Shown: positions 6,837 through 34,027, counted from the first letter of the stretch. The stretch is 64,000 nucleotides of DNA from an uncultured Candidatus Micrarchaeota archaeon (GCA_963760615.1 CAVXDX010000012.1:3338-67337); one strand, 5' to 3'. Notes: a model not told the origin generated them from the letters alone. Numbers and translations: made by a program.

Positions 6837-7280
6837 CTAGATTAGGTGGTTGAAGTCCTCCTTCACAACATTCAAGACAAAATGCGTATTTGTCTTCTCA
6901 ACTCCTTTCATACCCAAGAGGTGTTTTACGAATCTGTTCATCTCCTCCCTATTTTTGAATTTGGCGATCACTATGGCGTCACAAGCTCCGGTTGCATCAT
7001 ACACTCCCATCACATGCGGCAGCTGTGCTATCTCCTTCTCCGCCTCAACTAACTTGCCTTTCCTCGCCATAATCTCAATTATTGCTGTGAGTTCATAGCC
7101 TAGTTTTTCATAGTCAAGTAGGATTGAATACCCCTGTATCACACCATTTCTTTCCAATCCCCTGACCTTTTGAATCACAGTTGAGGTTGAGACTCCCAAT
7201 TTTTTCGATAATGCCCTGAAGGATATTCTTGAGTCCTTACTGAGCTCTTGGATTGTCCTCAGACTCATTTCATCAAACAT
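6837..7280 (-). CDS. Lrp/AsnC family transcriptional regulator
   Basis: N-terminal HTH (RISFRALSKKLGVSTSTVIQKV) plus a C-terminal RAM domain, about 147 aa. Confidence 0.8.
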   Translation of the reverse strand: MFDEMSLRTIQELSKDSRISFRALSKKLGVSTSTVIQKVRGLERNGVIQGYSILLDYEKLGYELTAIIEIMARKGKLVEAEKEIAQLPHVMGVYDATGACDAIVIAKFKNREEMNRFVKHLLGMKGVEKTNTHFVLNVVKEDFNHLI

Positions 7281-8898: not shown

Positions 8899-10302
8899 TT
8901 AGGCAACTTCCTTCCCATCTCCTTTCTCAACTCTTCCGTACTCGCTCATGCCCGCCCTCCACAATGAGCCGTACCTCTCGTTCATCTGCTCCTCAATTGT
9001 TTTGCCTCTCTTCACTGCAACCTCAACATGCTTCTTCTCTATGAACTCGCTTCCCTCCACAGAGGCAATGTCTCCTGCAAGCTTTATTATCCCGCTCACT
9101 CCCCTCAGGCGCAGGGTTAATGCAGCAACATCGTCTATTGTTTTGGCCCTCTTCCTCGCCTCGCTTATTATCGCCTGGATTGCGCCTGCATCTGCATGCG
9201 GTATTCTGCCGTCCTTCACTATCTCCTGCGCCACGAACTGCACCATTTTCATCTGGTTCTCTTCAGTGTCATCCATATATGTTTTCAGCAGAACTTCGTA
9301 GCCGTTGCCTGTCATCCTTGACCTCAAGGGCGGGAGCAGCGAAGGCAAATCGCTCATGTTCAATGCAGCAACAAGTATGAAGTCGCATGGAACGGCATCA
9401 ACCCTCACAGATGCTCCTGTGCTCGACTCATTTCTTCCAGTCACTGGGAACTTCTTCTCCTGCATTGCTGTGAGTATGAACCTCTGCAGATAACCAAGAT
9501 TCGCTATTTCATCTACGAAAAGCACTCCCTCATGCGCCTCGTGAATCGCCCCTGGGACAACCCGCATATAGGGCAGCGTGCCTACCTCAGGATGCCCTCC
9601 GTATGGGTCGTGCCTCACGTCTCCGAGCAGCTCAGTCTCTGATGCGCCTGTTGCCTGCACAAATGTCTCCCTCTTTAGGGGCACTATTACCTTCCTAGGT
9701 CTCACTTCTGAATCAATGACCTTTGTGAGCGACTTCTGGTCATACACTCTCACCTTGTCCCCGTCCGCCCTCTCGTATACCATTATCTCCTCCTTCCCAT
9801 CCGGGCATTTCCTCGTTGCATATACACGGTCCTTTGTCTTTGTTGCATTCGTTGAGACAAAATCCTCAAATGGGGATACGCGCTTCATCTGCTTGTCAGA
9901 GCCGCAGTTGGGGCACACCTGAGGGTTCGTGCTGAGCACTCCGCACATTTCGCACCTGCAGCCCAGTTTCTCTGCAATATACTTTGGAATCTTGGAAACG
10001 GGAACTACCACGCCCTCCTCCCTGCTGCCTGAGCATGGCTTGAACTCCCTCACATCCAGCATAGGTCTTTCAGGGTTTGAGAAGTTGTGCAGCACTGCCA
10101 CCTCTTGCTTCGGCGGGGGTATCAGATGGGCCAGAGACTGGGCTATCATGCTCTTTCCGGTTCCCGGAGGGCCAACGAGAAGAAGATGTCTCCTCTGCCT
10201 TGAGGCTATTCTCGCTGCCTCAACTGCGCCACCCTGTCCTATTATCATTTCAAGCGGATCCTTGGGCAGAGCAACGTCTTTTGTGCTCCCCGGTAGGTCC
10301 AT
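8899..10302 (-). CDS. Lon-like AAA+ ATPase without a recognisable protease domain, with an internal Cys4 zinc ribbon
   Basis: IIGQGGAVEAARIASRQRRHLLLVGPPGTGKSM resembles the Lon/LonB Walker A region. LFVDEIANL is Walker B, with a sensor/arginine-finger region after it. A CxxC...CxxC insert is present. The protein ends at 467 aa with no Ser-Lys protease module. Confidence 0.5.
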   Translation of the reverse strand: MDLPGSTKDVALPKDPLEMIIGQGGAVEAARIASRQRRHLLLVGPPGTGKSMIAQSLAHLIPPPKQEVAVLHNFSNPERPMLDVREFKPCSGSREEGVVVPVSKIPKYIAEKLGCRCEMCGVLSTNPQVCPNCGSDKQMKRVSPFEDFVSTNATKTKDRVYATRKCPDGKEEIMVYERADGDKVRVYDQKSLTKVIDSEVRPRKVIVPLKRETFVQATGASETELLGDVRHDPYGGHPEVGTLPYMRVVPGAIHEAHEGVLFVDEIANLGYLQRFILTAMQEKKFPVTGRNESSTGASVRVDAVPCDFILVAALNMSDLPSLLPPLRSRMTGNGYEVLLKTYMDDTEENQMKMVQFVAQEIVKDGRIPHADAGAIQAIISEARKRAKTIDDVAALTLRLRGVSGIIKLAGDIASVEGSEFIEKKHVEVAVKRGKTIEEQMNERYGSLWRAGMSEYGRVEKGDGKEVA

Positions 10303-24453: not shown

Positions 24454-24585
24454 CTCTCAGTTACGATTTCAGTTTCAAGGTATATTAATATTGACTATAT
24501 TCGAGTAAAGCTAGCTTGAATATTTAAAAGAGATACATACGCCAGTTTGGGACAGACTCTGTTTCTTTAGGTTTTATAAAGACAA

Positions 24586-24599
24586 AAAGGCATAATTTA
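24586..24599 (+). promoter_or_regulatory. Conserved promoter-proximal 14-mer aaaggcataattta (copy 1) between TATA (24572-24580) and the ATG at 24603
   Basis: An exact 14/14 copy is also present at 25496-25509 and 28933-28946, each 4-5 nt upstream of a leaderless start. Confidence 0.6.
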
Positions 24600-24602
24600 A
24601 CC

Positions 24603-25475
24603 ATGCCAGAAAACGTCAAATTTACGGAAGAGCGAAACTCGGAAGAAAAGGTACCGAGAAGGGAGCACCTCCAGCCTATCAAGGAGATTATCCACCAATT
24701 ACATAAAAAGAAATTTGTCGAGCCAAGTTCAGTGAAAGCTGTGCTGCTGTATATAGAAATGGATTGGGGGAGCGGTGAGCTGCAGAAATGGGCTGATGAG
24801 GTTGAACGGAAAAAAGAGAGACTAGAAAAAAAGTTTAAGGTAAATGAGAAGCTCACCACTGAGATAAAAAGCATAATTGAGAGAGTGGGCACAGGTGTTC
24901 TAAGCGAGGATGAAATGAAAGAGGCTGAGAGGAGATTCAAAGGAGCGAAATATGCGTGGAGCCGCTATTCCATTATCCCTCTTATTGTCAAGGGTGGGCA
25001 AACAGCAGGCCATATTGAGCTGCTTAGAACTGCCCCGTTATTGGATGAGGTAGCGAGTTACGGGATAAAACTTCACGAGTCCGCCCATTTTATTCATCTT
25101 TTCATAGTTGAGAAGCGCCTTGAGAGCGGGGATATCAAAGACCCGATAATGAAAAGGCTTTATGAGTACATGCACGGGAAATATAGCAACGAGATAATTG
25201 ATGCCGCGGTGCGCGGCTATATCGGCCCGCGATATCAGGAGACCGTGGCGGAGGCTCTCATGTACTGCGTGCTGCACAAGGGCGAAACACCTGACAAGCA
25301 CAGGGATTTCAGGGTGGCTGACGAATTCAGGCTGCTCGGACATGACGTCAAGGAGCTGGGAAACCTTTTCAAAAGCAACCCTGAGACATTCAGAAAGCTC
25401 GTGGAAAACCCCTCATGGTGGGTGGAAGCTGGCAGCGTTGAAAAACTTGTTGAAAAGTTGAAGGAACCGGGCTAG
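24603..25475 (+). CDS. Hypothetical protein with an HExxH motif, candidate zincin-like metallopeptidase; first gene of the island promoter family
   Basis: LHESAHFIH, with a downstream ETVAEALMY as a possible third ligand. Leaderless with TATA at -30. The conserved 14-mer aaaggcataattta ends 4 nt before the ATG. Confidence 0.4.
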   Translation: MPENVKFTEERNSEEKVPRREHLQPIKEIIHQLHKKKFVEPSSVKAVLLYIEMDWGSGELQKWADEVERKKERLEKKFKVNEKLTTEIKSIIERVGTGVLSEDEMKEAERRFKGAKYAWSRYSIIPLIVKGGQTAGHIELLRTAPLLDEVASYGIKLHESAHFIHLFIVEKRLESGDIKDPIMKRLYEYMHGKYSNEIIDAAVRGYIGPRYQETVAEALMYCVLHKGETPDKHRDFRVADEFRLLGHDVKELGNLFKSNPETFRKLVENPSWWVEAGSVEKLVEKLKEPG

Positions 25476-25495
25476 TGACAATCTTAAAAAGGAGA

Positions 25496-25509
25496 AAAGG
25501 CATAATTTA
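25496..25509 (+). promoter_or_regulatory. Conserved promoter-proximal 14-mer aaaggcataattta (copy 2)
   Basis: Identical 14-mer. TATA tcttaaaaa at 25482-25490. ATG at 25514. Confidence 0.6.
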
Positions 25510-25513
25510 GGAT

Positions 25514-26479
25514 ATGCCAGCATACAAGAAAGAGAAGGCGGAGGGCATATCAGAAAGCCACCCTGCTTCGAAAGTTGACGTCTTCCCAGACCACCTAAAC
25601 ACCAAGATTGGGGATTACAAAGTTCGCATAGACAAGGATGGGGTAAAAGCAAGGAAGGAAGTAAAGGACCTGACGGTTCAACTTGCGCGGATGGATTATG
25701 AACAGTGGTATTACCCGTCGTTAGGTCCGAATTTTGTAGATAAGAAAGAAATTAAGGTGCCTTCCATTGATCTTGTCGTATCGTTCAGTTTTGAAGACCT
25801 ATCCAGTATAGCCGAGTTGAAGCCTAATGAGCTTAAGGGATATCCTGAAAGGACCTCCCAAAATTGGATAAATGTGAACGTTTCTGCAAAATTCCTTATT
25901 GACGATAGGGAGATGGATATGAAAGGATTCACCAGGGGAGTTGTCAAGCATTCAATGCCTCGTTGGCTTACTGACGCCAAGGAATCCAAGCTTCGTGATG
26001 CCATTATTCTTGATGATGATTTCCGCGGCAAGCTTGCCGGTGACATCAGGATGCTTGCCAGGAAGGTTGACTGGATGCTGAAATTCGACCCAAATGCCTC
26101 TGTGTCATTCAAAGCGCTAATGGCTGCAAAGAAGGCGGGGATAGAAAACTTCGACAGAGAAGTCGAGAGTCTGACAATACAGGTTTTGGAAATATCAGAG
26201 AAATGCGATGTTTTCAAGAACCCGGACGCCCTGCTTCAACTGGCCGTTAAGGCAAGGGAACAGGAAAATGGCGAAGCCATAGTTCTTAAACTTGGCGTCG
26301 ACCTTTTCATGGCAGCCCAATTCATCCGAGATGAAGCTAATAAGACGACTGACCCCGCTGCCAAGGCTTTCCGGGAAAACCAGGCAAAAAAACTGTATGC
26401 GCTTAGCCAGCTATTCCATGATTACGCTCTAAAGGACTTGAATGAAAAGAGAGACAAGAAGTCCAAGAAGGAGTCATAG
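25514..26479 (+). CDS. Hypothetical protein (321 aa, K/E-rich); carries the same conserved promoter-proximal 14-mer
   Basis: Clean ORF starting ATGCCAG with the 14-mer and TATA upstream. No recognisable domain. Confidence 0.4.
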   Translation: MPAYKKEKAEGISESHPASKVDVFPDHLNTKIGDYKVRIDKDGVKARKEVKDLTVQLARMDYEQWYYPSLGPNFVDKKEIKVPSIDLVVSFSFEDLSSIAELKPNELKGYPERTSQNWINVNVSAKFLIDDREMDMKGFTRGVVKHSMPRWLTDAKESKLRDAIILDDDFRGKLAGDIRMLARKVDWMLKFDPNASVSFKALMAAKKAGIENFDREVESLTIQVLEISEKCDVFKNPDALLQLAVKAREQENGEAIVLKLGVDLFMAAQFIRDEANKTTDPAAKAFRENQAKKLYALSQLFHDYALKDLNEKRDKKSKKES

Positions 26480-26530
26480 ACGTTTTTCTGACATTTCTGA
26501 AATCATCTAGGCTTTCTTCTGGTTGAGGTA

Positions 26531-26548
26531 ATGTAACTATGGTTACAC
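26531..26548. promoter_or_regulatory. 18-bp palindrome atGTAACtatgGTTACac (GTAAC-N4-GTTAC), candidate operator
   Basis: One of three near-identical palindromes in island intergenic regions. About 80 nt upstream of the 26612 start. Confidence 0.5.
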
Positions 26549-26611
26549 AAACTACATGGAAAGGAAGTCAGTTTCTTTATGGTTTATAAGCTTAAAACGA
26601 GCAATTTTAGC

Positions 26612-27913
26612 ATGCCAGAAGCGCACAAGAAAGCAGTCTATACGCAGTCCTTGATAGACAACCCTAAGCTTTCAGAAGACAAGGTAACCGGTGAGTTCAA
26701 GGGATTCCCACTAGAATACAGGAACGGCGTGATATACCTAAGCAAGGAATACCACCACATACATGCAATTATAGAGTGGTGGGATGAGGGAACGAAGGAT
26801 TTTATCAAGAGACCGGTGGTATTCGATTCAGTCAAGGTTACTGCGGAATTCAGGGGGAAGGAATTCGCACATGGATTCTACGGGGAGGATATAACAATTG
26901 ACTGCGGTTACGCCACTGCGGAATTCAAGCTTGACGGGAAGAAGTACAAGGTGGATTACGGCATATTTGAAGGCGACAATTCTAGTTGGTATCTGAACTA
27001 CTACTCGGACTTCGACAATGACAAGAAAAGACTGTATTTCATGCGTCATTTCAACAGCAGAGTCATGGATGATTTCGTCCCATTCAGGGACCATGGGCTT
27101 GTGGATGTCCTCAGGTTTGACAAGCATGTTGCTCCGCTCTTCGAAATTGAGCTGGAAACAAGAAAGAAAAAGCATGAACTGGTTGAAGACTTGAAGCTGG
27201 AGGCGCAACAGATTGGCAGGCAATACGACATAGAAAGAAACCCCCTTCCTCTGCAGCCGATATTCAAGAGGGCCAAGGAAGCAGGGGTGGTTGATAAACT
27301 CATAGGCGGACTGAGGAGGTGGGCCATGGACAGAAGAGAGCACATGTCAGATTGGGGAGAGGAGACGAGGTGGGTTTCGATTGAAGAGATTGCAAGCGGA
27401 AGGAGAAGGGAGAGCTTTGAGGACTTGGCAAGGAGGACTCAGGCAGAGAGGCTTGACAAGATAGCAGATGCGCTTCAGAAGTTCAACCAGAAACCCACTA
27501 AACAGCAGGAGAAGGAATCTGCGGAATGGCTTGCCTTCGACAATGCGTTGAAGAAGGTTGATGGAATGATGGCTGAGGAAAAGGACTGGAGCAGGGATAC
27601 TGGTAAATTTGCCGCTCGTGTCATTGAGGAGATAAAGCCCATATGCGAGCCGAGAAAGTTTGCGGAAACCCTGAAAAGACTCATGGAGTTCAAGAAGGAT
27701 GATGGAGTGGTTGAGCAACTCTCTGCACTTTACAGCCCTATGTATTTCAGGAACTTCATCAGAATGATGGGTGGGGATATCAGCAATGAGGAACTTGAGG
27801 AGCTGTTCGGAAAGGGAAAGGAGCGCCTGGGAGAGTATGTGAGAGGCGTGGCTGATGAGACCAAGGGGAGGGAGCTTCTTCTTTTGAGCGAGGAGATTCT
27901 GAAGAGATGCTGA
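26612..27913 (+). CDS. Hypothetical protein (433 aa); start reassigned to the ATGCCAG at 26612, not the track start at 26579
   Basis: The ATGCCAG start context is shared with the two upstream genes. TATA gtttataag sits at -30 relative to 26612. The GTAAC-N4-GTTAC palindrome sits at -80. Confidence 0.4.
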   Translation: MPEAHKKAVYTQSLIDNPKLSEDKVTGEFKGFPLEYRNGVIYLSKEYHHIHAIIEWWDEGTKDFIKRPVVFDSVKVTAEFRGKEFAHGFYGEDITIDCGYATAEFKLDGKKYKVDYGIFEGDNSSWYLNYYSDFDNDKKRLYFMRHFNSRVMDDFVPFRDHGLVDVLRFDKHVAPLFEIELETRKKKHELVEDLKLEAQQIGRQYDIERNPLPLQPIFKRAKEAGVVDKLIGGLRRWAMDRREHMSDWGEETRWVSIEEIASGRRRESFEDLARRTQAERLDKIADALQKFNQKPTKQQEKESAEWLAFDNALKKVDGMMAEEKDWSRDTGKFAARVIEEIKPICEPRKFAETLKRLMEFKKDDGVVEQLSALYSPMYFRNFIRMMGGDISNEELEELFGKGKERLGEYVRGVADETKGRELLLLSEEILKRC

Positions 27914-28034
27914 ACAGCCAGCACACGGGCTCCTGACAGGAAGTTTGGGAGGGGGCAGCAGACGATTAGCGGAAAGTTACCCCTTGCCAATGTTTTTAAA
28001 CGACAAACCTAGTATCAATACAGAGGCGGGGTAA

Positions 28035-28481
28035 TTGGATGTTCTTTTAGATACAAATGTCTACCTGGCGCATATAAAAGGTGAAATGCAGGGCTCTCAT
28101 GCAAAAATTATACTGGAAAGGGTGGCAGCAGGGGAGCTTGCCCTTTGCTACAACGGCATAATCCGGATGGAAATAGAGAGAAAGTATGGGTATTACCTAG
28201 AACCGTTTTGCGCCATACTCGAAGAGCTGAGAAAATTAGGCAGAGTTGTGGATGTTGAAATCACAAATGAGATGAGTGAAAAGGCAATACAACTCGATAG
28301 GAAGCTGATAAAATACAGAAGAGGAAAGGAAGAAAGATTCGGAAAGATTGATTGCTTGCTGATACTTCTTGCAAAGAAACATGGATGCATGCTTGTGACT
28401 ATTGAGAAAGAATTAATTGAAGCCGCAAGAGAAGAGGGAGTCAAGGCAGTCAGTCCAATGGATCTAGCGATGAGTTTCTAG
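28035..28481 (+). CDS. PIN-domain (VapC-like) nuclease, TTG start
   Basis: LLDTNVYL N-terminal acidic motif and further conserved acidic positions in a 148-aa PIN-sized protein. Confidence 0.6.
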   Translation: MDVLLDTNVYLAHIKGEMQGSHAKIILERVAAGELALCYNGIIRMEIERKYGYYLEPFCAILEELRKLGRVVDVEITNEMSEKAIQLDRKLIKYRRGKEERFGKIDCLLILLAKKHGCMLVTIEKELIEAAREEGVKAVSPMDLAMSF

Positions 28482-28793
28482 GTTCGCTTCCTTTATGAGC
28501 ATGCCCAGAGCTTTACGTTCATTGTTATCCGCCCTCTTTAGAAAATCTTTCCACAACGATTTTCTGGCTGCCCTTCCTAGTTTTGCTGCGCTCTTTGCTC
28601 TATCTCGTTTAACACTCCCGAAAGTCTCCTCAATAATCTTTAATGCCCTTTGTCTTAAAAGTTCAGTCTTTCCTAATTTACTCATATCTTTTACGGCCTC
28701 ACTTCTAGAGGTATAGTATCCTTCTTTAACCAGAATATCTATCTCCTCAACGTCTTTTACTGCATACCGAACTGGTACGACAATGGATTTCAT
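28464..28793 (-). CDS. Ribbon-helix-helix (CopG/VapB-like) DNA-binding protein
   Basis: MKSIVVPVRYAVKDVEEIDILVKEGYYTSRSEAVKDM is the RHH beta-strand plus EEID...SRSEA helix pattern. Convergent with the PIN gene and overlapping it by 18 nt. Confidence 0.5.
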   Translation of the reverse strand: MKSIVVPVRYAVKDVEEIDILVKEGYYTSRSEAVKDMSKLGKTELLRQRALKIIEETFGSVKRDRAKSAAKLGRAARKSLWKDFLKRADNNERKALGMLIKEANLETHR

Positions 28794-28895
28794 TGTATAC
28801 TAAAGCGTATACAGTATTTAAAAGCTTTTGCTGTTCGTATTAAGCCGAATTGTTATTTCATCAAGATTGATAGAATGACCAAGAGGGACGGGGGA

Positions 28896-28913
28896 ATGTA
28901 ACCCGGGTTACAA
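28896..28913. promoter_or_regulatory. 18-bp palindrome atGTAACccggGTTACaa, candidate operator
   Basis: In the divergent intergenic region between the RHH gene (28793) and the 28951 gene. Confidence 0.5.
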
Positions 28914-28932
28914 AGCAGGCTTAAATATCGGG

Positions 28933-28946
28933 AAAGGCATAATTTA
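28933..28946 (+). promoter_or_regulatory. Conserved promoter-proximal 14-mer aaaggcataattta (copy 3)
   Basis: Identical 14-mer. TATA gcttaaatat about 28918-28927. ATG at 28951. Confidence 0.55.
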
Positions 28947-28950
28947 AGGC

Positions 28951-29118
28951 ATGACAGAGGCAAAAAAGCCGGCTGCCAGCATGAGAAAAGATATAGAGCG
29001 GCAGCAGGAGAAGATGAGGGAGCTGTTCGACGAGCTCAAAGAAACCGTGAGCAAACCCAAATGGGATGAGAAGCCGAAGGGGTTCTTCACCGCGCTTGAG
29101 AAAAAGCTCGGCAACTAA
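28951..29118 (+). CDS. Small hypothetical protein (55 aa), not in the supplied ORF track
   Basis: Read directly from the + strand: MTEAKKPAASMRKDIERQQEKMRELFDELKETVSKPKWDEKPKGFFTALEKKLGN. Preceded by the conserved aaaggcataattta 14-mer and TATA. Confidence 0.4.
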   Translation: MTEAKKPAASMRKDIERQQEKMRELFDELKETVSKPKWDEKPKGFFTALEKKLGN

Positions 29119-29716
29119 CCTTAAGGCAACGGATATAATACACTTTGTCACGGCGGGTGAATCAAAATGTAACATTATACTGACTTCAGATGATGACTTT
29201 ATTTCAGAAGGTACAAGATTTCTAAAGATGAAAAAAGAAGATGACAAGCTAAAGTTCTGTAAGCCTATCGAAAAGAATGTGCTAGATGCAGTTGATAATC
29301 TCACTAAAAAAGTTCCTTAAAGTATATAGATTTTTGTGTATAATATAGCATCCGTGAATCACTCGAAACCGTCCGGTTTTGCCAGAAAAAGCAAAAAAAG
29401 CGGTAAAATCCGGCAGAACAGGCAGTATCTCTCCAACTTCTTCAAAAATCCTGAAAAGCCAGCCTAGACCGGAGAAGCCGGCTCAGGCGTAAGCCTCTTC
29501 CGGCTGCGCCAAAGCGCAGCAAGTGTTAGTTTGACCGTTTCACGATGAAGAGAAAAAGCAGGTGAAACGGTAACCGATGCTGCTCAGACGTAAGCATATT
29601 CCGAACTGCCTACCGTTTCGACCGATTCTACAGACGTGTTTTATACCCTAGCAGAAATTTGAAAAAAAGCAGAAAGCTTACGCTATACTCGCAGTCAATG
29701 ACTACTGCCCACCTCC

Positions 29717-29917
29717 CTACTTACTCAGAGCTTTTGCTATTACTATCAGAACTGGTGTTATGATTGTCAGTGCTACTGCAGCTGTTATAACTTGTAGTAT
29801 CTGAGAACCTAGTGGATTACTGGTTGTTATTAGATAGAGTGCTGCTAGTACGATGATTGCAACTGTTCCACTTGCAATTCCAATTCCAAATATCTTCAGT
29901 GAACTCATGCCTTTCAC
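29717..29917 (-). CDS. Small membrane protein (66 aa, 2 TM)
   Basis: Hydrophobic small ORF. Confidence 0.3.
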   Translation of the reverse strand: MKGMSSLKIFGIGIASGTVAIIVLAALYLITTSNPLGSQILQVITAAVALTIITPVLIVIAKALSK

Positions 29918-30237
29918 CTCCAGCCCTTACTCGCTAGAAAGGTTTTTAAATCGCCTCTTACAAAACTAGTAACAGTTATGTAAGAGGTGGTAGCGGGAGA
30001 GGTCATGGTTACACGTGTACCCTCCCCCATCTCTTTCTAGTTTTCAAAACTGCTATAATTTTGGAAGTAAAAGTTTTAATAACATATTGTCCAACAAATT
30101 CAGTCGCTCCGACGAGAAGATGCCGGAATGTGAGTTCTGCTGGTTCAATCGAAGTATTTTATACCCGAATTGAAGATGCTGGTTTTTGTGCGAGTTGAGA
30201 GGCAGATATTTAAACCGAAAAATGCATAACTTATTCC

Positions 30238-30479
30238 GAGTGATGAGCCGGCAGCTTTCCCGCAAGGGAGGAAGTTCCACCCATCGCGAAGGCTGAGGGA
30301 ACCTAAGGTTCGGACGGGAACAGAAACGAGACTGGCCGATTCAGATGAGGATGAAGCAATGAGATGGGTCGAGCCGGGTGAAACGCGCCCGTCGCAAAAG
30401 CAGGATGTGCGATGCAAGGCCTTTGAGCCGCTTAGTCCAATGCTGTCTAAAACAAAAGGTGGGCTATGGCTCGTCACTC
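30238..30479 (+). ncRNA. rnpB: RNase P RNA (compact, about 242 nt)
   Basis: P1 is 12 bp: GAGUGAUGAGCC pairs with GGCUCGUCACUC. P2 is GGCAGC/GCUGUC. P3 is a hairpin with a GCAA loop. CR-I is GGAGGAAGUUCCACCC (E. coli has GGAAAGUCCGGGC). CR-V is ACAAAAGGUGGGCUAUGG (E. coli has ACAGAACCCGGCUUAUCGG) with compensatory CCAC/GUGG in P4. A GGGUGAAAC (CR-II) segment and a GCAAGGCC (CR-III) segment are present. TATA atatttaaa sits about 28 nt upstream. Confidence 0.8.
30433..30479 (+). repeat. 47-bp perfect direct repeat, copy 1 (3' end of rnpB); att-like
   Basis: tagtccaatgctgtctaaaacaaaaggtgggctatggctcgtcactc is identical to 31673-31719. Degenerate similarity extends about 20 nt further 5'. Confidence 0.85.
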
Positions 30480-30989
30480 TTTCTGCTTGCTTGGCTTCTT
30501 TATGACAGGTTTTTCCTCTGGCTTTGTTTTCTGTAAAGTAAGCGCAAGCGACCATCCGATGGTTACTCCGCAGACCCACAAAAACCCGAAGATTATAGGA
30601 CTGATGTCGGAATGGTATATCGGGCACGCATCCAAAATTCCAAATAGGGGTTTGTTGTATGGCCTTCCGGAGGTGCAGTGGAAAATGAATGGTATCAGCG
30701 CCAGTATGGCAATGAAGAAAAGGAAAGTGAGAATCCCGCTGGCAATCAGATCTATTGAATCCAGATGGTATATTCTCACCGCAGCGTAGCCGCCGCTGAT
30801 AAAAATGATAAGGACAGCCAGCAGATACCCGAAGTAAAAGTTGCTTCCAAATGCAAATTGAGAGTAGCCCGGGAGAGAATCGTACATGGGCTCGGTTATT
30901 GCGTATATGAGAAATATCAAAGCCACTGGAATAAGCGATGCTTTCAGCATTTTCTTCCATTCCATGAGACCACCCATCAGATATGCCAT
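30474..30989 (-). CDS. Membrane protein (171 aa, about 4 TM) inside the repeat-bounded segment
   Basis: Hydrophobic ORF. Its stop overlaps the rnpB 3' end convergently. Confidence 0.45.
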   Translation of the reverse strand: MAYLMGGLMEWKKMLKASLIPVALIFLIYAITEPMYDSLPGYSQFAFGSNFYFGYLLAVLIIFISGGYAAVRIYHLDSIDLIASGILTFLFFIAILALIPFIFHCTSGRPYNKPLFGILDACPIYHSDISPIIFGFLWVCGVTIGWSLALTLQKTKPEEKPVIKKPSKQKE

Positions 30990-31041
30990 TCCGAGATTTA
31001 TAAAGTTTCACACCGGGGGCTTTTTTTCCAGCAGAATGCGC

Positions 31042-31362
31042 TTATAACTCCGTATGGATTACCTTGAGGAGCAGACCGTCCTTTATCTTTTCGAACAGCA
31101 CAAGGTCCTTGTCATGAATCTTCTCCTCCTCAACCAGCTTCTCAGGCAGTGTGACCACTTTTGAATGCCCCACCACCCTCACCCTCCTGGCCAACGACTT
31201 CCTCCTGCCGGTCAGGACTTCCCACCTCAGCATTTCGCTTGAGGGAAAGAAGGTCTCGGAGCAGCCCTGGCACTTCCATCCTCTAATCCTGACGCCTTCG
31301 CTTACTTCCGTGTATTTTTTCAACGGTCCTTTGCAGATTGCGCATCTTTCCATAAACATCAC
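31042..31362 (-). CDS. Zinc-ribbon plus AbrB/SpoVT-like swapped-hairpin domain protein, putative antitoxin
   Basis: N-terminal CAICKG...CQGC ribbon. The C-terminal VVGHSKVVTLPEKLVEEEKIHDKDLVLFE resembles AbrB/MazE-fold DNA binders. Confidence 0.45.
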   Translation of the reverse strand: MMFMERCAICKGPLKKYTEVSEGVRIRGWKCQGCSETFFPSSEMLRWEVLTGRRKSLARRVRVVGHSKVVTLPEKLVEEEKIHDKDLVLFEKIKDGLLLKVIHTEL

Positions 31363-31613
31363 CTCACAAGCTTCAGATGAATTAATATAATCTCCTTGTC
31401 AGTTTCGGCATAGACAAGCTCCCAAACTCCATTTTTTGCTTTCCTCTCAACCCTTACCTTCTCCTTGGATTCCTTCTCATGCTCTCCTTTCTCCAGGATT
31501 TCCAGAACAAAATCCAGATTTTTCCTGTATATGTTGTAAAGTTCATTCTTGAAATGCCCTGTCTCAATCAAATCTTTGTTCTTGAATCGCAGCTCTTCAG
31601 GCATATATCTCAA
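31359..31613 (-). CDS. RelE/ParE-like small protein (84 aa), putative toxin
   Basis: The C-terminal GVWELVYAETDKEIILIHLKLVR resembles the RelE/ParE beta-sheet region. Overlaps the downstream AbrB-like gene by 4 nt. Confidence 0.4.
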   Translation of the reverse strand: MRYMPEELRFKNKDLIETGHFKNELYNIYRKNLDFVLEILEKGEHEKESKEKVRVERKAKNGVWELVYAETDKEIILIHLKLVR

Positions 31614-31672
31614 CTGAGTAAAGTATATACTCTTGGATATTTATATATCTTTCTATAATTGAGGCTTTGCTG

Positions 31673-31719
31673 TAGTCCAATGCTGTCTAAAACAAAAGGT
31701 GGGCTATGGCTCGTCACTC
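31673..31719 (+). repeat. 47-bp perfect direct repeat, copy 2 (displaced partial rnpB 3' end); att-like
   Basis: Identical 47-mer with a gapped similar 5' extension (ggctttgctgtagtcc versus ggcctttgagccgcttagtcc). Confidence 0.85.
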
Positions 31720-31736
31720 ATTATTGTTTATTGTGT

Positions 31737-32612
31737 TCAGGCGATTCCGTACTGTTTTTTTATCTCCTCGAAAGTAGGCAGGGCAAACTCCTTTCTTGCT
31801 TTTACTACTTCCTGAAAATCCTCAGGATTGACCCCGAGCTTCTTGGCTATGTCCTTCACATCTAACAGCTTAACCTTTGAAAGCTTTACTACTCCGAACC
31901 AGTGCATCGCCCTCACGTCATCCCAGAGAAGCTCGCCATTGGGGTTTTTCGCCAGCTCTTCTATTATCTCCTTCCTGGCTGCATAAATCTTGTCGTCATC
32001 CCCGAGAATCCTGTTGTTGAAAAAAAGAAAGATTTTCGCAAACGTGACTTCCTCCATGTCTTCAGATTTTTTGCTGCCATCTGAAGGTTTGAAATTTCTT
32101 ATTCTCTCTTTTGTTTCCTCAAGTTCGAAGATACGACCTCTGAGTTTCATGTTTTCATCTCCAAACTCGTGCATCACCAAGCTCGTTTCATGGTTATTGC
32201 TCTCATCCCTCAGTAGGACATGCACATCAACATCGCTCCTTGCCCCTGCGGTTCCTTTTGCCCAGCTCCCCATAAATGAAAGTCCTATAAACTTGTCCCC
32301 GTTAATGAATTTTAGCGCTTTCTCAGCTCTCCCCAGCAGCTCTATGAGTTCTTCATAGCGCTGTTTTTCCAAAGCAGTGCCCTTTCTACCTATAAACTCC
32401 GGGTATTCGGCTGACTTGAGGACTTCCGCCCTTGCGGCCTGCTTCAGCTCATTCTTGAATGACTTCGTGAGAAACTTTTCAGCAGCAGCCCTTTCGTCAT
32501 CTGACAGGATGCTTTTCTTCAGGGCTTCCTTGAAGTCTGAGCCTATCTCATCCCTGAGTTTTTGCTCTATCTGCTTGTCCTTTGAAATTTTCTGCATGTC
32601 TAGATTAGGCAT
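31737..32612 (-). CDS. Polymerase-beta-superfamily nucleotidyltransferase domain protein (291 aa)
   Basis: GSWAKGTAGARSDVDVHVLL is the hG[GS]x9-13Dh[DE]h NTase motif. The protein is much longer than a minimal MNT. The GTAAC-N4-GTTAC palindrome sits at -85. Confidence 0.55.
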   Translation of the reverse strand: MPNLDMQKISKDKQIEQKLRDEIGSDFKEALKKSILSDDERAAAEKFLTKSFKNELKQAARAEVLKSAEYPEFIGRKGTALEKQRYEELIELLGRAEKALKFINGDKFIGLSFMGSWAKGTAGARSDVDVHVLLRDESNNHETSLVMHEFGDENMKLRGRIFELEETKERIRNFKPSDGSKKSEDMEEVTFAKIFLFFNNRILGDDDKIYAARKEIIEELAKNPNGELLWDDVRAMHWFGVVKLSKVKLLDVKDIAKKLGVNPEDFQEVVKARKEFALPTFEEIKKQYGIA

Positions 32613-32691
32613 TTCTTTCTATTTAATCTTGCCTCCCCCCCAACAACCAAATTAACCAGTAAGATTTCCCACCGGGGGCTTTTTTCCAGTT

Positions 32692-32709
32692 ATGTAACCA
32701 TGGTTACAT
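32692..32709. promoter_or_regulatory. Perfect 18-bp palindrome atgtaaccatggttacat, candidate operator
   Basis: Perfectly self-complementary. About 85 nt upstream of the nucleotidyltransferase gene start (32612). Confidence 0.55.
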
Positions 32710-32788
32710 TGCCTTGACACGGATTTATTTTGTTACAGTAACAAAAAATGCCTCTTTTCGTGCTGATTTTGTTATAATAACAAATTAA

Positions 32789-33070
32789 CTAGTCCGCCCC
32801 GCACCAGAATCCGCCGTACTTCTTTATGTACTTCTCCTCCTGCTTGAAATGCTTCCTGCAGAGGTAGCTCCATCCCGAGTCCTTTCCGATGTGGTAAACC
32901 TCCTTGAATGGTTCATCGGTGCAGCCCTTATAATCGCAGAAATGCCCCTCCATGTATCTTCTGGCGCATTTCTCGGAGCAGAACTCGCCGTATTTCTTCA
33001 GGGAGACTGCCTTCCTGCCCGTTTTTCCATCGCACCATCTGCACTCTCTTTCTCTACGCATGGTATGCAA
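32789..33070 (-). CDS. Cys/His-rich small zinc-binding protein
   Basis: Multiple CxxC/HxxC pairs in 93 aa (CRWCDG...CSEKCARR...HFCDYKGC...CRKH). Confidence 0.35.
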   Translation of the reverse strand: MHTMRRERECRWCDGKTGRKAVSLKKYGEFCSEKCARRYMEGHFCDYKGCTDEPFKEVYHIGKDSGWSYLCRKHFKQEEKYIKKYGGFWCGAD

Positions 33071-33413
33071 CTGCCTTTATCGATTTCCTATGGGCCGCTC
33101 CTTCACCGACGGATTGTCTTATCAGCGCAAGCTCTATCTTCTTTATTTCTTGCACTATTGGGCTTGCCTCGTTGAGCTGGTAGAGCTTTATCCTGCCAAT
33201 CTGCCTTGTCACTTTCATTATGTTCCTTTCCTCAAGCCTGTCCCAGTATTTGTACAGGGTCGTCCAGCCAACTCCCGAGCCATTTGCTATTTCCTTCTTG
33301 GTGAAATCCCGCAGTCTGTTCTCCAGTAGGAAATCAATTATTCTGAATAATGGCGTGTCCCCGAAAAATTCAAGAAGAAGGGAACTACCACCGCTAGGGT
33401 CGCCAAGACTCAC
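33054..33413 (-). CDS. Winged-helix transcriptional regulator
   Basis: LFRIIDFLLENRLRDFTKKEIANGSGVGWTTLYKYWDRLEERNIMKV shows a wHTH pattern. Divergent from the 33560 gene. Confidence 0.5.
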   Translation of the reverse strand: MSLGDPSGGSSLLLEFFGDTPLFRIIDFLLENRLRDFTKKEIANGSGVGWTTLYKYWDRLEERNIMKVTRQIGRIKLYQLNEASPIVQEIKKIELALIRQSVGEGAAHRKSIKAVAYHA

Positions 33414-33559
33414 TTATATCACCTCTAAGCATTATTATTAACAGTTAATAGTTAACACACAAAAGTATTTAAATGTTCGCTAATAAATATATGAGCATTC
33501 TTCAAAAAGAACAGTTGGAGAGTAGTCTGAGGTGACCGTGACTCCAACGGAGAATACGT

Positions 33560-33850
33560 ATGAGTGAGATTGACAGGGCATATTCAAAAGAAGAGCTTAA
33601 GGCGCACATTCTCTATAAGCTTGCAAGGAGGAGGATGTGGGGAGGCAAACACCTCCCGATTATGTATGTCCGTTCTGGAATTCCTCAGAAATATTTGAGT
33701 CAGTTAGATGAGATTGCGAAGGAACTTATAAATGAAGGACTTCTCATTCAAGCTCCGAAAACAGGCCAGCTTCATGTCTCACTCAATCCGCGTATGAAGA
33801 GGGAAATAATTGAGCTGATTGAAAGACATTTCGGAAAAGTTTACTGGTGA
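33560..33850 (+). CDS. Hypothetical small protein (96 aa), possible wHTH
   Basis: Clean ORF with no strong motif. Confidence 0.3.
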   Translation: MSEIDRAYSKEELKAHILYKLARRRMWGGKHLPIMYVRSGIPQKYLSQLDEIAKELINEGLLIQAPKTGQLHVSLNPRMKREIIELIERHFGKVYW

Positions 33851-33903: not shown

Positions 33904-34027
33904 GCCAAGGTAGCTCAGCTTGGTTAGAGCACCAGACTCATAAGCTCAGCTTCATGAGTGATGAGCGCTATGCGCGATGATATGCTGCGTAATCTGGGTG
34001 TCGCGAGTTCAAATCTCGCCCTTGGCA
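33904..34027 (+). tRNA. tRNA-Met (anticodon CAU) with a 49-nt intron (33943-33991) at the canonical 37/38 position
   Basis: Acceptor GCCAAGG/CCTTGGC, D-arm GCTC...GAGC, anticodon stem CCAGA/TCTGG, loop CTCATAA, T-arm GCGAGTTCAAATCTCGC. Intron segment AUGAGU pairs with ACUCAU of the anticodon region (BHB-type helix). No CCA is encoded. Confidence 0.75.

Follow-up and report, generated by a model that had tools for sequence, protein, structure and literature searches.

A GTAAC-N4-GTTAC palindrome upstream of unrelated genes in a hypervariable micrarchaeal island, predicted to be the site of one dimeric DNA-binding protein

Binding sites located upstream of the core promoter are known in archaea from Ptr2 of Methanocaldococcus jannaschii, TFB-RF1 of Pyrococcus furiosus, and the TGM and SurR sites of dual regulators in Thermococcales, and archaeal sites upstream of the TATA box are more typical of activators or dual regulators. 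To our knowledge, very little has been learned about how DPANN archaea, with their small genomes and few regulators, control transcription. Here, a stretch of 64,000 nt from an uncultured Candidatus Micrarchaeota archaeon (GCA_963760615.1, CAVXDX010000012.1:3338-67337; hereafter, the window) was found to harbor three copies of a palindrome, GTAAC-N4-GTTAC, upstream of accessory genes in a hypervariable island. Like the archaeal sites mentioned above, this GTAAC motif is a short palindrome that precedes the transcription factor B recognition element (BRE) and TATA box at several promoters. A dimeric helix-turn-helix (HTH) or winged HTH (wHTH) protein acting on the recruitment of TBP and TFB is presumed for those sites and, likewise, for the GTAAC motif.

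The GTAAC motif and its promoter context

An exact search of the window with GTAACNNNNGTTAC returned three matches (26533-26546, 28898-28911, and 32694-32707), as compared with a mean of 0.00 and a maximum of 0 in 100 dinucleotide-preserving shuffles of the window. This agrees with the three near-identical palindromes listed in a first-pass annotation of the sequence, which had also correctly described the copy at 32692 as fully self-complementary. GTAAC and GTTAC did not occur in the window at any other spacing tried between 0 and 12 nt, and allowing two mismatches added a single weak site (13220), which is within chance expectation. Three GTAAC pairs spaced 64 nt apart (17255, 21815, and 41404) turned out to be unrelated sequences. 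About 130 kb of additional unique sequence was retrieved from relatives by means of the proteins neighboring the sites. The motif was found again in this DNA, namely at L011:1890 and L021:18932 (which count as one unique site), L025:5825, L025:9140, and L031:11314. Seven unique sites are thus present in ~194 kb (window and relatives), while ~0.2 occurrences of GTAAC-N4-GTTAC are expected from a uniform-base estimate for the total length examined.

The motif extends to ATGTAAC-N4-GTTACA (consensus ATGTAAC-YMKR-GTTACA), and all 13 specified positions of its two arms (7 + 6 nt) are identical in all seven sites. The spacer has a fixed length of 4 nt and a variable sequence (TATG, CCGG, CATG, or TATA); the base following GTTACA varies and the distal flanks are unrelated. 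In each of the five asymmetric sites the ATG arm faces away from the TATA box and the downstream gene. All seven fall between genes, although coding sequence makes up ~90% of the DNA. Conserved inverted arms around a spacer that is constant in length but tolerant in sequence are characteristic of the site of a dimeric factor, and location in promoter regions, frequency above chance, and conservation in relatives with diverged flanks are characteristic of transcription factor sites. An unbiased enumeration of perfect palindromes with 7-nt arms recurring in the related loci yielded only three motif families, namely the GTAAC motif, TGTATAC-N6-GTATACA, and TTTGTTA-N3-TAACAAA.

Comparison of the flanks sorted the seven sites into three classes that resemble homologous promoter modules. 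Site 2 of the window, L025:5825, and L031:11314 share the continuation GTTACAA-agcaNg-CT(T/G)AAAT. These three sites are located before non-homologous genes; the palindrome therefore behaves as the outermost element of a promoter module and travels as a unit with the downstream promoter. Orthologous promoters in L013, L019, L018, and L005 do not have the motif, which makes it optional, as a facultative regulatory module would be.

The spacing of TATA boxes was calibrated on the promoter of the RNase P RNA gene, in which the TATA center lies ~27 nt before the RNA 5' end. TATA-like 8-mers peak window-wide at -33 to -25 before gene starts, and a TATA box is found 26 nt before the ATG of four genes: those of the 433-amino acid (aa) protein and of the ribbon-helix-helix (RHH) protein, the 55-aa open reading frame (ORF), and the nucleotidyltransferase gene. 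The transcripts are therefore leaderless or have short leaders. A shared promoter layout, TTAAATA/TTATAAA followed after ~10 nt by (A)AAGGCATAATTTA and after another 3-4 nt by ATG, was also observed to drive several island genes (24574-24599, 25484-25509, 28921-28946, and 30208-30233). This layout is similar to that of the RNase P RNA promoter and is also present in L007, L021, L025, and L031.

All seven sites are positioned upstream of the TATA box, at a gap of 6-64 nt. Site 1 lies 52 nt past the stop codon of a 321-aa gene; 34 nt separate it from the downstream TATA box of the 433-aa gene and 63 nt separate its end from the ATG at 26612, and its center is at about -73 from the leaderless start. 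Site 2 is located between divergent genes, 7 nt before the TATA box of the 55-aa ORF (center at about -46); it ends 37 nt ahead of this ORF, and on its other side the RHH start is 102 nt away, with the center at about -111 relative to this start. Site 3 lies 64 nt before the TATA box of the nucleotidyltransferase gene (center at about -103); its distance is 79 nt to the first ATG of this gene and 94 nt to 32597, the probable true start. The 48-bp block at 32665-32712, comprising palindrome 3 and the GC element, is 92% identical to L021 and L011. The measured distances to gene starts are roughly the 50-90 nt given by the first-pass annotation. In L011 and L021, the palindrome begins 11 nt after the stop codon of the 93-aa gene, and the TATA box of a membrane-protein gene follows it at a distance of 27 nt. 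The L025:5825 copy is 8 nt ahead of a TATA box; the other L025 copy follows the stop codon of a homolog of the 433-aa gene by 12 nt and precedes the TATA box of a paralog by ~25 nt; and the L031 copy is 4 nt after the stop codon of a 433-aa homolog. None of the seven sites overlaps a TATA box or transcription start, as a classical archaeal repressor operator does. Even the closest sites (site 2 and L025:5825), which abut the BRE region, leave the TATA box uncovered.

Because the arms are invariant, the spacer is variable in sequence and fixed in length, the location is in promoters, and the sites are conserved in relatives, the palindromes are predicted to be cis-regulatory sites of one dimeric sequence-specific DNA-binding protein that would co-regulate unrelated genes; we put the probability of this reading at roughly 0.6. 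Its two 7-nt arms are centered 11 bp apart, approximately one helical turn, and a dimer of HTH or wHTH type could thus reach into consecutive major grooves on the same side of the double helix. The placement is either directly upstream of the BRE and TATA box (gap of 7-8 nt, center at about -46) or 27-64 nt upstream of the TATA box (centers at about -64 to -103). From either position the bound protein would work from upstream by recruiting or modulating TBP and TFB, or would possibly insulate the promoter from read-through, and it would probably not occlude the TATA box or start site. Of the dimeric repressor regulon proposed by the first-pass annotation, the shared site of a dimeric protein fits the arms, location, and conservation, whereas the repressor is not supported by the positions: because no site overlaps a TATA box or start site, upstream activation or modulation is more likely than classical occluding repression, as judged from position only. 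A motif so strictly conserved offers a concrete handle for finding a DPANN regulator and its regulon, and it could show how horizontally acquired cassettes are wired into host control.

Several observations weigh against a shared regulatory site. Three of the site-bearing relatives were found through the gene beside site 1, which constitutes an ascertainment bias, and the DNA of this lineage that was examined amounts to only ~194 kb. Co-occurrence tied no binding protein to the motif in the window and the fetched relatives. The sites differ in their distance to the TATA box (7, 8, 25, 27, 34, and 64 nt, with the TATA box in L031 being uncertain). Real regulons usually include degenerate sites, but all sites here are perfect matches, and this perfection could instead stem from a sequence module that has spread recently or from an enzyme that recognizes the site. 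Finally, the sites lie 4-80 nt downstream of stop codons in compact intergenic regions, so a role at 3' ends or cassette boundaries is possible.

Candidate binding proteins

The first-pass annotation had looked for the cognate regulator among proteins encoded in the same island: an RHH protein (28464), a Zn-ribbon-AbrB protein (31042), and a wHTH protein (33054). None of the three was upheld in this role, and it is doubtful that the palindromes are operators at which an island-encoded repressor shuts off the accessory genes, all the more so as steric repressor sites lie over the TATA box or start, unlike any site described here. The RHH protein was rejected as the binder: its module (27964-28831) extends ~38 nt upstream of the RHH start and stops 65 nt before site 2. 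An autoregulatory operator is expected within the RHH-PIN module and to travel with it, and five other RHH-PIN loci, in other contexts, do not contain GTAAC-N4-GTTAC. The module possesses an operator-like palindrome of its own, TGTATAC-N6-GTATACA (28794-28813 in the window), which lies over the leaderless RHH start, is found at every RHH promoter, and is conserved in all five RHH-PIN modules (window, L003, L005, L007, and L008). The RHH and PIN genes are convergent with an 18-nt overlap, an arrangement that is unusual for a toxin-antitoxin pair.

The Zn-ribbon-AbrB gene belongs to a 1.24-kb insertion that is absent from the related loci searched and is bordered by 47 duplicated nucleotides of the RNase P 3' end. 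No homolog was found in eight related loci searched, which included the motif-bearing L021 and L025 and left out L031.

The wHTH gene belongs to the conserved core beside tRNA-Met, together with the 93-aa and 96-aa genes, rather than to the island. Its product is a true HTH protein of small size, from a family that is large and uncurated (~110-120 aa; 877 clusters) with generic similarity to ArsR-, IscR-, MarR-, and TetR-like HTH domains in, among others, PDB sequence searches; none of 60 family members gave a PadR match, and a single-sequence AlphaFold2 model (predicted local distance difference test score, pLDDT, of 44) was of too low confidence to be informative. The operon formed by this gene and the 93-aa gene ends beside the palindrome in the window, L011, and L021. 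Against its role as the repressor, the promoter of the wHTH gene has no GTAAC palindrome, and no site is present within 6-13 kb of the gene in L013, L018, L019, and L005; its homologs in the first three are 80-91% identical. Conversely, the gene was not found in the 18-19 kb fetched around the sites of L025 and L031. Since L031 and L005 may be two ends of the island of one genome, this co-occurrence pattern is not decisive, and the wHTH protein is retained as an unproven candidate binder. The 96-aa protein is possibly a small DNA-binding protein and thus a second unproven candidate. Other DNA-binding proteins of the window are an Lrp/AsnC protein (6837-7280) and an 845-aa VIT-VWA-HTH protein. 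The leader of the 96-aa gene was also observed to contain a conserved inverted repeat, GTTGGAG...CTCCAAC (33516-33555), which overlaps the Shine-Dalgarno-like GGAG/GAGGTGA of this gene and could be a translational control hairpin.

The hypervariable island and its cassettes

The window is archaeal; the dihydroorotase that it encodes falls in a cluster (≥90% identity) with a member named 'Candidatus Micrarchaeota archaeon', and the same sequence is present in Logan assemblies of ERR10755944. The sites are located in a hypervariable stretch of ~24.5-33.9 kb (window coordinates) between conserved core genes. VIT-VWA-HTH, helicase, BofA, and cupin genes border it at one end, and the genes for tRNA-Met, a 413-aa membrane protein, phosphopantothenate synthetase, and dihydroorotase border it at the other. 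The content of this stretch differs in every related contig. In the window it spans the RNase P RNA gene and includes three orphan genes (encoding 290, 321, and 433 aa), RHH and PIN genes in convergent orientation, gene fragments, a membrane-protein gene, the Zn-ribbon-AbrB gene paired with an 84-aa gene, and an MntA-like nucleotidyltransferase gene. Relatives harbor at the same place an Eco57I-like restriction enzyme, GmrSD, additional nucleotidyltransferase pairs, and an insertion sequence (IS) element. The island is rich in genes of toxin-antitoxin and defense type.

In this setting, the palindromes might be a portable regulatory or recombination tag of the cassettes exchanged between DPANN defense-type islands, an idea that we consider unlikely. 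If true, a short module would accompany cassettes moving between distantly related Micrarchaeota, and newcomers would be plugged into one host regulator, or cassettes would be inserted at a junction signal. The narrower version, in which the palindromes are recombination signals at the ends of gene cassettes like integron attC or plasmid pdif, is quite improbable; it would reveal how such islands assemble and represent an archaeal counterpart of attC/pdif without a linked integrase. The mosaic structure of the island is in line with such signals. Compared with L021, the window contains a 1.96-kb insertion (290-aa and 321-aa genes) that ends just past site 1, and the 433-aa gene is separated from site 2 by the inserted RHH-PIN module; in L025 and L031, by contrast, the palindrome comes right after the homolog of this gene. 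The last 47 nt of the RNase P gene (30433-30479) are duplicated 1.24 kb downstream (31673-31719), and a 26-nt GC element on the minus strand (AAAAAAGCCCCCGGTGGGAAA) occurs both beside site 3 and, without a palindrome, at 31001-31026. Two tandem units of RNase P 3' end, minus-strand gene, and GC element are thus present, one with a 171-aa membrane protein and the other with the nucleotidyltransferase, and the Zn-ribbon-AbrB/84-aa pair sits between them. These membrane and nucleotidyltransferase cassettes are alternatives in the relatives compared (L021 has only the former after RNase P, and L005 only the latter) and are found together in the window between the duplicated flanks. L018 retains just a 15-nt remnant of the RNase P end, and the RNase P 3' end looks like a hotspot of cassette insertion. 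The sites are also perfect copies, and a cassette gene is 87% identical between its L021 and L025 homologs while the only core gene compared, the homolog of the 413-aa membrane protein, is ~24% identical to that of the window.

Several details argue against a junction signal. Mobile palindromes and recombination sites (REP/RAYT, MITE, attC, or dif-like) would be expected to come with a transposase or recombinase, breakpoints at the site, and either a longer imperfect palindrome or a crossover spacer of 6-8 nt. No recombinase or integrase is encoded near any site, and the only one seen is an IS transposase in the site-free L013. An 18-bp element with a 4-nt spacer is shorter than attC or the core sites of tyrosine recombinases, and most cassette junctions have no palindrome. 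Moreover, the breakpoints of homology lie near and not at the palindromes, 25-65 nt from sites 1 and 2: site 1 ends at 26548, just outside the block homologous to L021 and L025 that begins at 26572, and the RHH-PIN module ends at 28831 ahead of site 2 at 28896.

The palindrome could alternatively have no function of its own and represent a piece, not yet diverged, of a duplicated promoter fragment spread horizontally, a proposal about as improbable as the junction signal. The resemblance of the three flank classes to homologous promoter modules is consistent with it, as is the evidence for recent transfer of neighboring genes: the 87% identity of a cassette gene, as compared with ~24% for one core gene, points to horizontal transfer of the orphan cassette genes. 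However, the 13 arm positions are identical in all seven sites, while within each class divergence has affected the spacer, the distal flank, and a large part of the proximal flank, and arm identity holds across lineages with proteins that are only 50-70% identical.

The least probable reading is that the upstream transcript ends in an RNA hairpin that acts as terminator, processing site, or stabilizer: six of the seven sites do lie 4-80 nt past a co-directional stop codon, but the predicted hairpins are weak (-4.2 to -4.7 kcal/mol), six sites are not followed by a T-run, site 2 lies between divergent genes with no adjoining co-directional gene end, the arms are strictly identical instead of showing compensatory changes, and a covariance-model (Rfam) search gave no RNA family at the sites. 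The stable hairpin, T-run, and covariation or Rfam match of an intrinsic terminator or structured RNA are thus lacking.

Three other candidates were rejected. Origin recognition box (ORB) repeats of replication origins lack palindromic symmetry, and the proteins scanned included no orc1/cdc6; a target of restriction-modification would not account for a location restricted to promoters; and an ATG-TAA start-stop mini-ORF does not fit sites that lie upstream of TATA boxes.

The 433-aa protein downstream of site 1 has a beta-rich N-terminal domain and a helical C-terminal domain (AlphaFold2 model with a pLDDT of 72). Together with the 290-aa and 321-aa proteins (24603-27913), it constitutes an orphan family, paralogous by domain, that has relatives in L021, L025, and L031; homologs of the 433-aa protein in relatives are 59-70% identical. 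The N-terminal domain is common to the 433-aa and 321-aa proteins and a 249-aa protein of L025, and the C-terminal domain is shared with 463-aa and 226-aa proteins of L025. Neither the 433-aa protein nor the rest of the family has a match in Pfam, NCBIfam, or PADLOC, or a fold match in the PDB. No relatives of the 433-aa protein or of the 93-aa alignment were found in the GTDB representative genomes scanned, and searching IMG/VR for matches to the nucleotidyltransferase, the 433-aa protein, or the wHTH protein likewise gave none. In the variable island of L031, a single TBP repeat (Pfam TBP, E=1e-28) is encoded by a 116-aa ORF (9574-9924) located directly upstream of the 433-aa homolog.

The 55-aa ORF shows homology to part of the interior of a 329-aa L025 protein and is probably a gene remnant. 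It is overlapped by an 84-aa ORF that represents a C-terminal PIN fragment (29066-29320), and this part of the island (28951-29320) is decaying. The nucleotidyltransferase probably starts at Met-6 (32597), because the 286-aa gene call and the alignment with the L005 homolog begin there. Weak hints from PADLOC and NCBIfam relate the nucleotidyltransferase to MntA-like proteins and PDC-S09, and the wHTH protein to PDC-M05A. Upstream of the RNase P RNA gene, an ORF-poor region of ~0.8 kb (29320-30145) has a single ORF, a hydrophobic one of 66 aa on the minus strand (29717-29917), and three copies of AGAAAAAGCA..GGTAA-like repeats; it matched nothing in Rfam and showed no DNA homology to the relatives fetched.

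A different palindrome, TTTGTTA-N3-TAACAAA, is conserved upstream of nucleotidyltransferase genes in five lineages, often as a pair ~39 nt apart, and may be an operator or hairpin pair of MntA-like nucleotidyltransferase modules. A scan of IMG/VR with the 17-mer returned four contigs, approximately the number expected by chance, none of which is archaeal. Two are low-GC contigs without homology to the island proteins. The other two (L027 and L028) are contigs of a bacterial lambdoid phage that carry the 18-mer of site 3 just downstream of a cI-like (S24 peptidase) repressor gene and a related dyad, ATGTAACCAATGTTACG, in the cI/cro intergenic region. These phage dyads are unrelated to the archaeon and represent independent use of the same dyad as a likely repressor operator.

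Coordinates of the palindromes, promoter elements, and genes discussed in the text (window coordinates unless a related locus is named)
Feature	Coordinates	Strand	Remarks
Palindrome site 1, ATGTAACTATGGTTACAC	26531..26548	.	Upstream of 433-aa gene
Palindrome site 2, ATGTAACCCGGGTTACAA	28896..28913	.	Between divergent RHH gene and 55-aa ORF
Palindrome site 3, perfect 18-mer ATGTAACCATGGTTACAT	32692..32709	.	Between 93-aa Zn-finger and nucleotidyltransferase genes
TATA box TTTATAA, 433-aa gene	26583..26589	+	Center 26 nt before ATG 26612
TATA box TTAAATAT, 55-aa ORF	28921..28928	+	Followed by AAAGGCATAATTTA and ATG 28951
TATA box ATTAAATA, nucleotidyltransferase	32620..32627	-	In promoter GGAGGCAAGATTAAATA, conserved with L018 and L005
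GC element AAAAAAGCCCCCGGTGGGAAATCTTA	32660..32685	-	Directly promoter-side of site 3
433-aa orphan protein gene	26612..27913	+	Downstream of site 1
55-aa ORF	28951..29118	+	Downstream of site 2
RNase P RNA gene	30238-30479		Covariance search
Nucleotidyltransferase gene, MntA-like	31737..32597	-	Pfam NTP_transf_2; 286 aa
93-aa Cys-rich (FCS/TRASH-like) protein gene	32789..33070	-	Stop codon precedes site 3
119-aa wHTH gene	33054..33413	-	Co-transcribed with 93-aa Zn-finger gene; conserved core
96-aa conserved protein gene	33560..33850	+	Divergent from wHTH gene
Intron-containing tRNA gene (anticodon CAT, read as tRNA-Met)	33904-34027		Rfam covariance; missed by ARAGORN
TTTGTTA-N3-TAACAAA	32729-32745, 32768-32784; L005:9536/9572; L013:9598; L018:10356/10395; L019:4273		
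Phage dyads	L027:2076-2093, 2831-2848; also L028		

Comparison with known systems

Among bacterial operators, that of Bacillus subtilis PadR (ATGTAAatagTTACAT) has half-sites that are nearly those of the GTAAC motif (ATGTAA / TTACAT around a 4-nt center). Its solved structure shows a wHTH dimer that clasps the site (PMC5728393), a precedent for the binding mode predicted here, and the sequence of the padC operator is AACATGTAAATAGTTACATGAT (PMC5728393). The GTAAC motif differs from it by an extra base pair in each arm (ATGT-N10-ACAT instead of ATGT-N8-ACAT), and the C of the CATG read by PadR is not conserved. No PadR-family protein (PF03551) was found among the 30 window proteins of less than ~190 aa that were scanned, and thus neither the spacing nor the protein of a PadR-type system was found. 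The UmuDAb box of Acinetobacter also contains ATGTAAC and GTTACAT, but with a different spacing.

The operators of toxin-antitoxin modules with RHH or AbrB proteins are palindromes beside small DNA-binding genes, as is the case in this toxin-antitoxin-rich island, which has two palindrome families bound to modules in this way, TGTATAC-N6-GTATACA with RHH and TTTGTTA-N3-TAACAAA with the nucleotidyltransferase genes. The GTAAC motif, in contrast, is tied to no single module or gene family: it is found ahead of at least five genes that are unrelated to one another, and outside the boundary of the RHH module. It shares with attC and the pdif sites of Acinetobacter the location of palindromes between co-directional accessory cassettes in a recombining region. 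Unlike them, it is much shorter and perfectly symmetric and has no integrase or Xer protein nearby; moreover, most junctions do not have it, and each gene has its own promoter. From the archaeal upstream sites of Ptr2, TFB-RF1, and the Thermococcales regulators, the motif differs in its own sequence, in lineage (DPANN), and in its targets, which are orphan and defense-like cassettes. As it stands, it compares with them as a plausible but ordinary transcription factor site in a poorly studied lineage.

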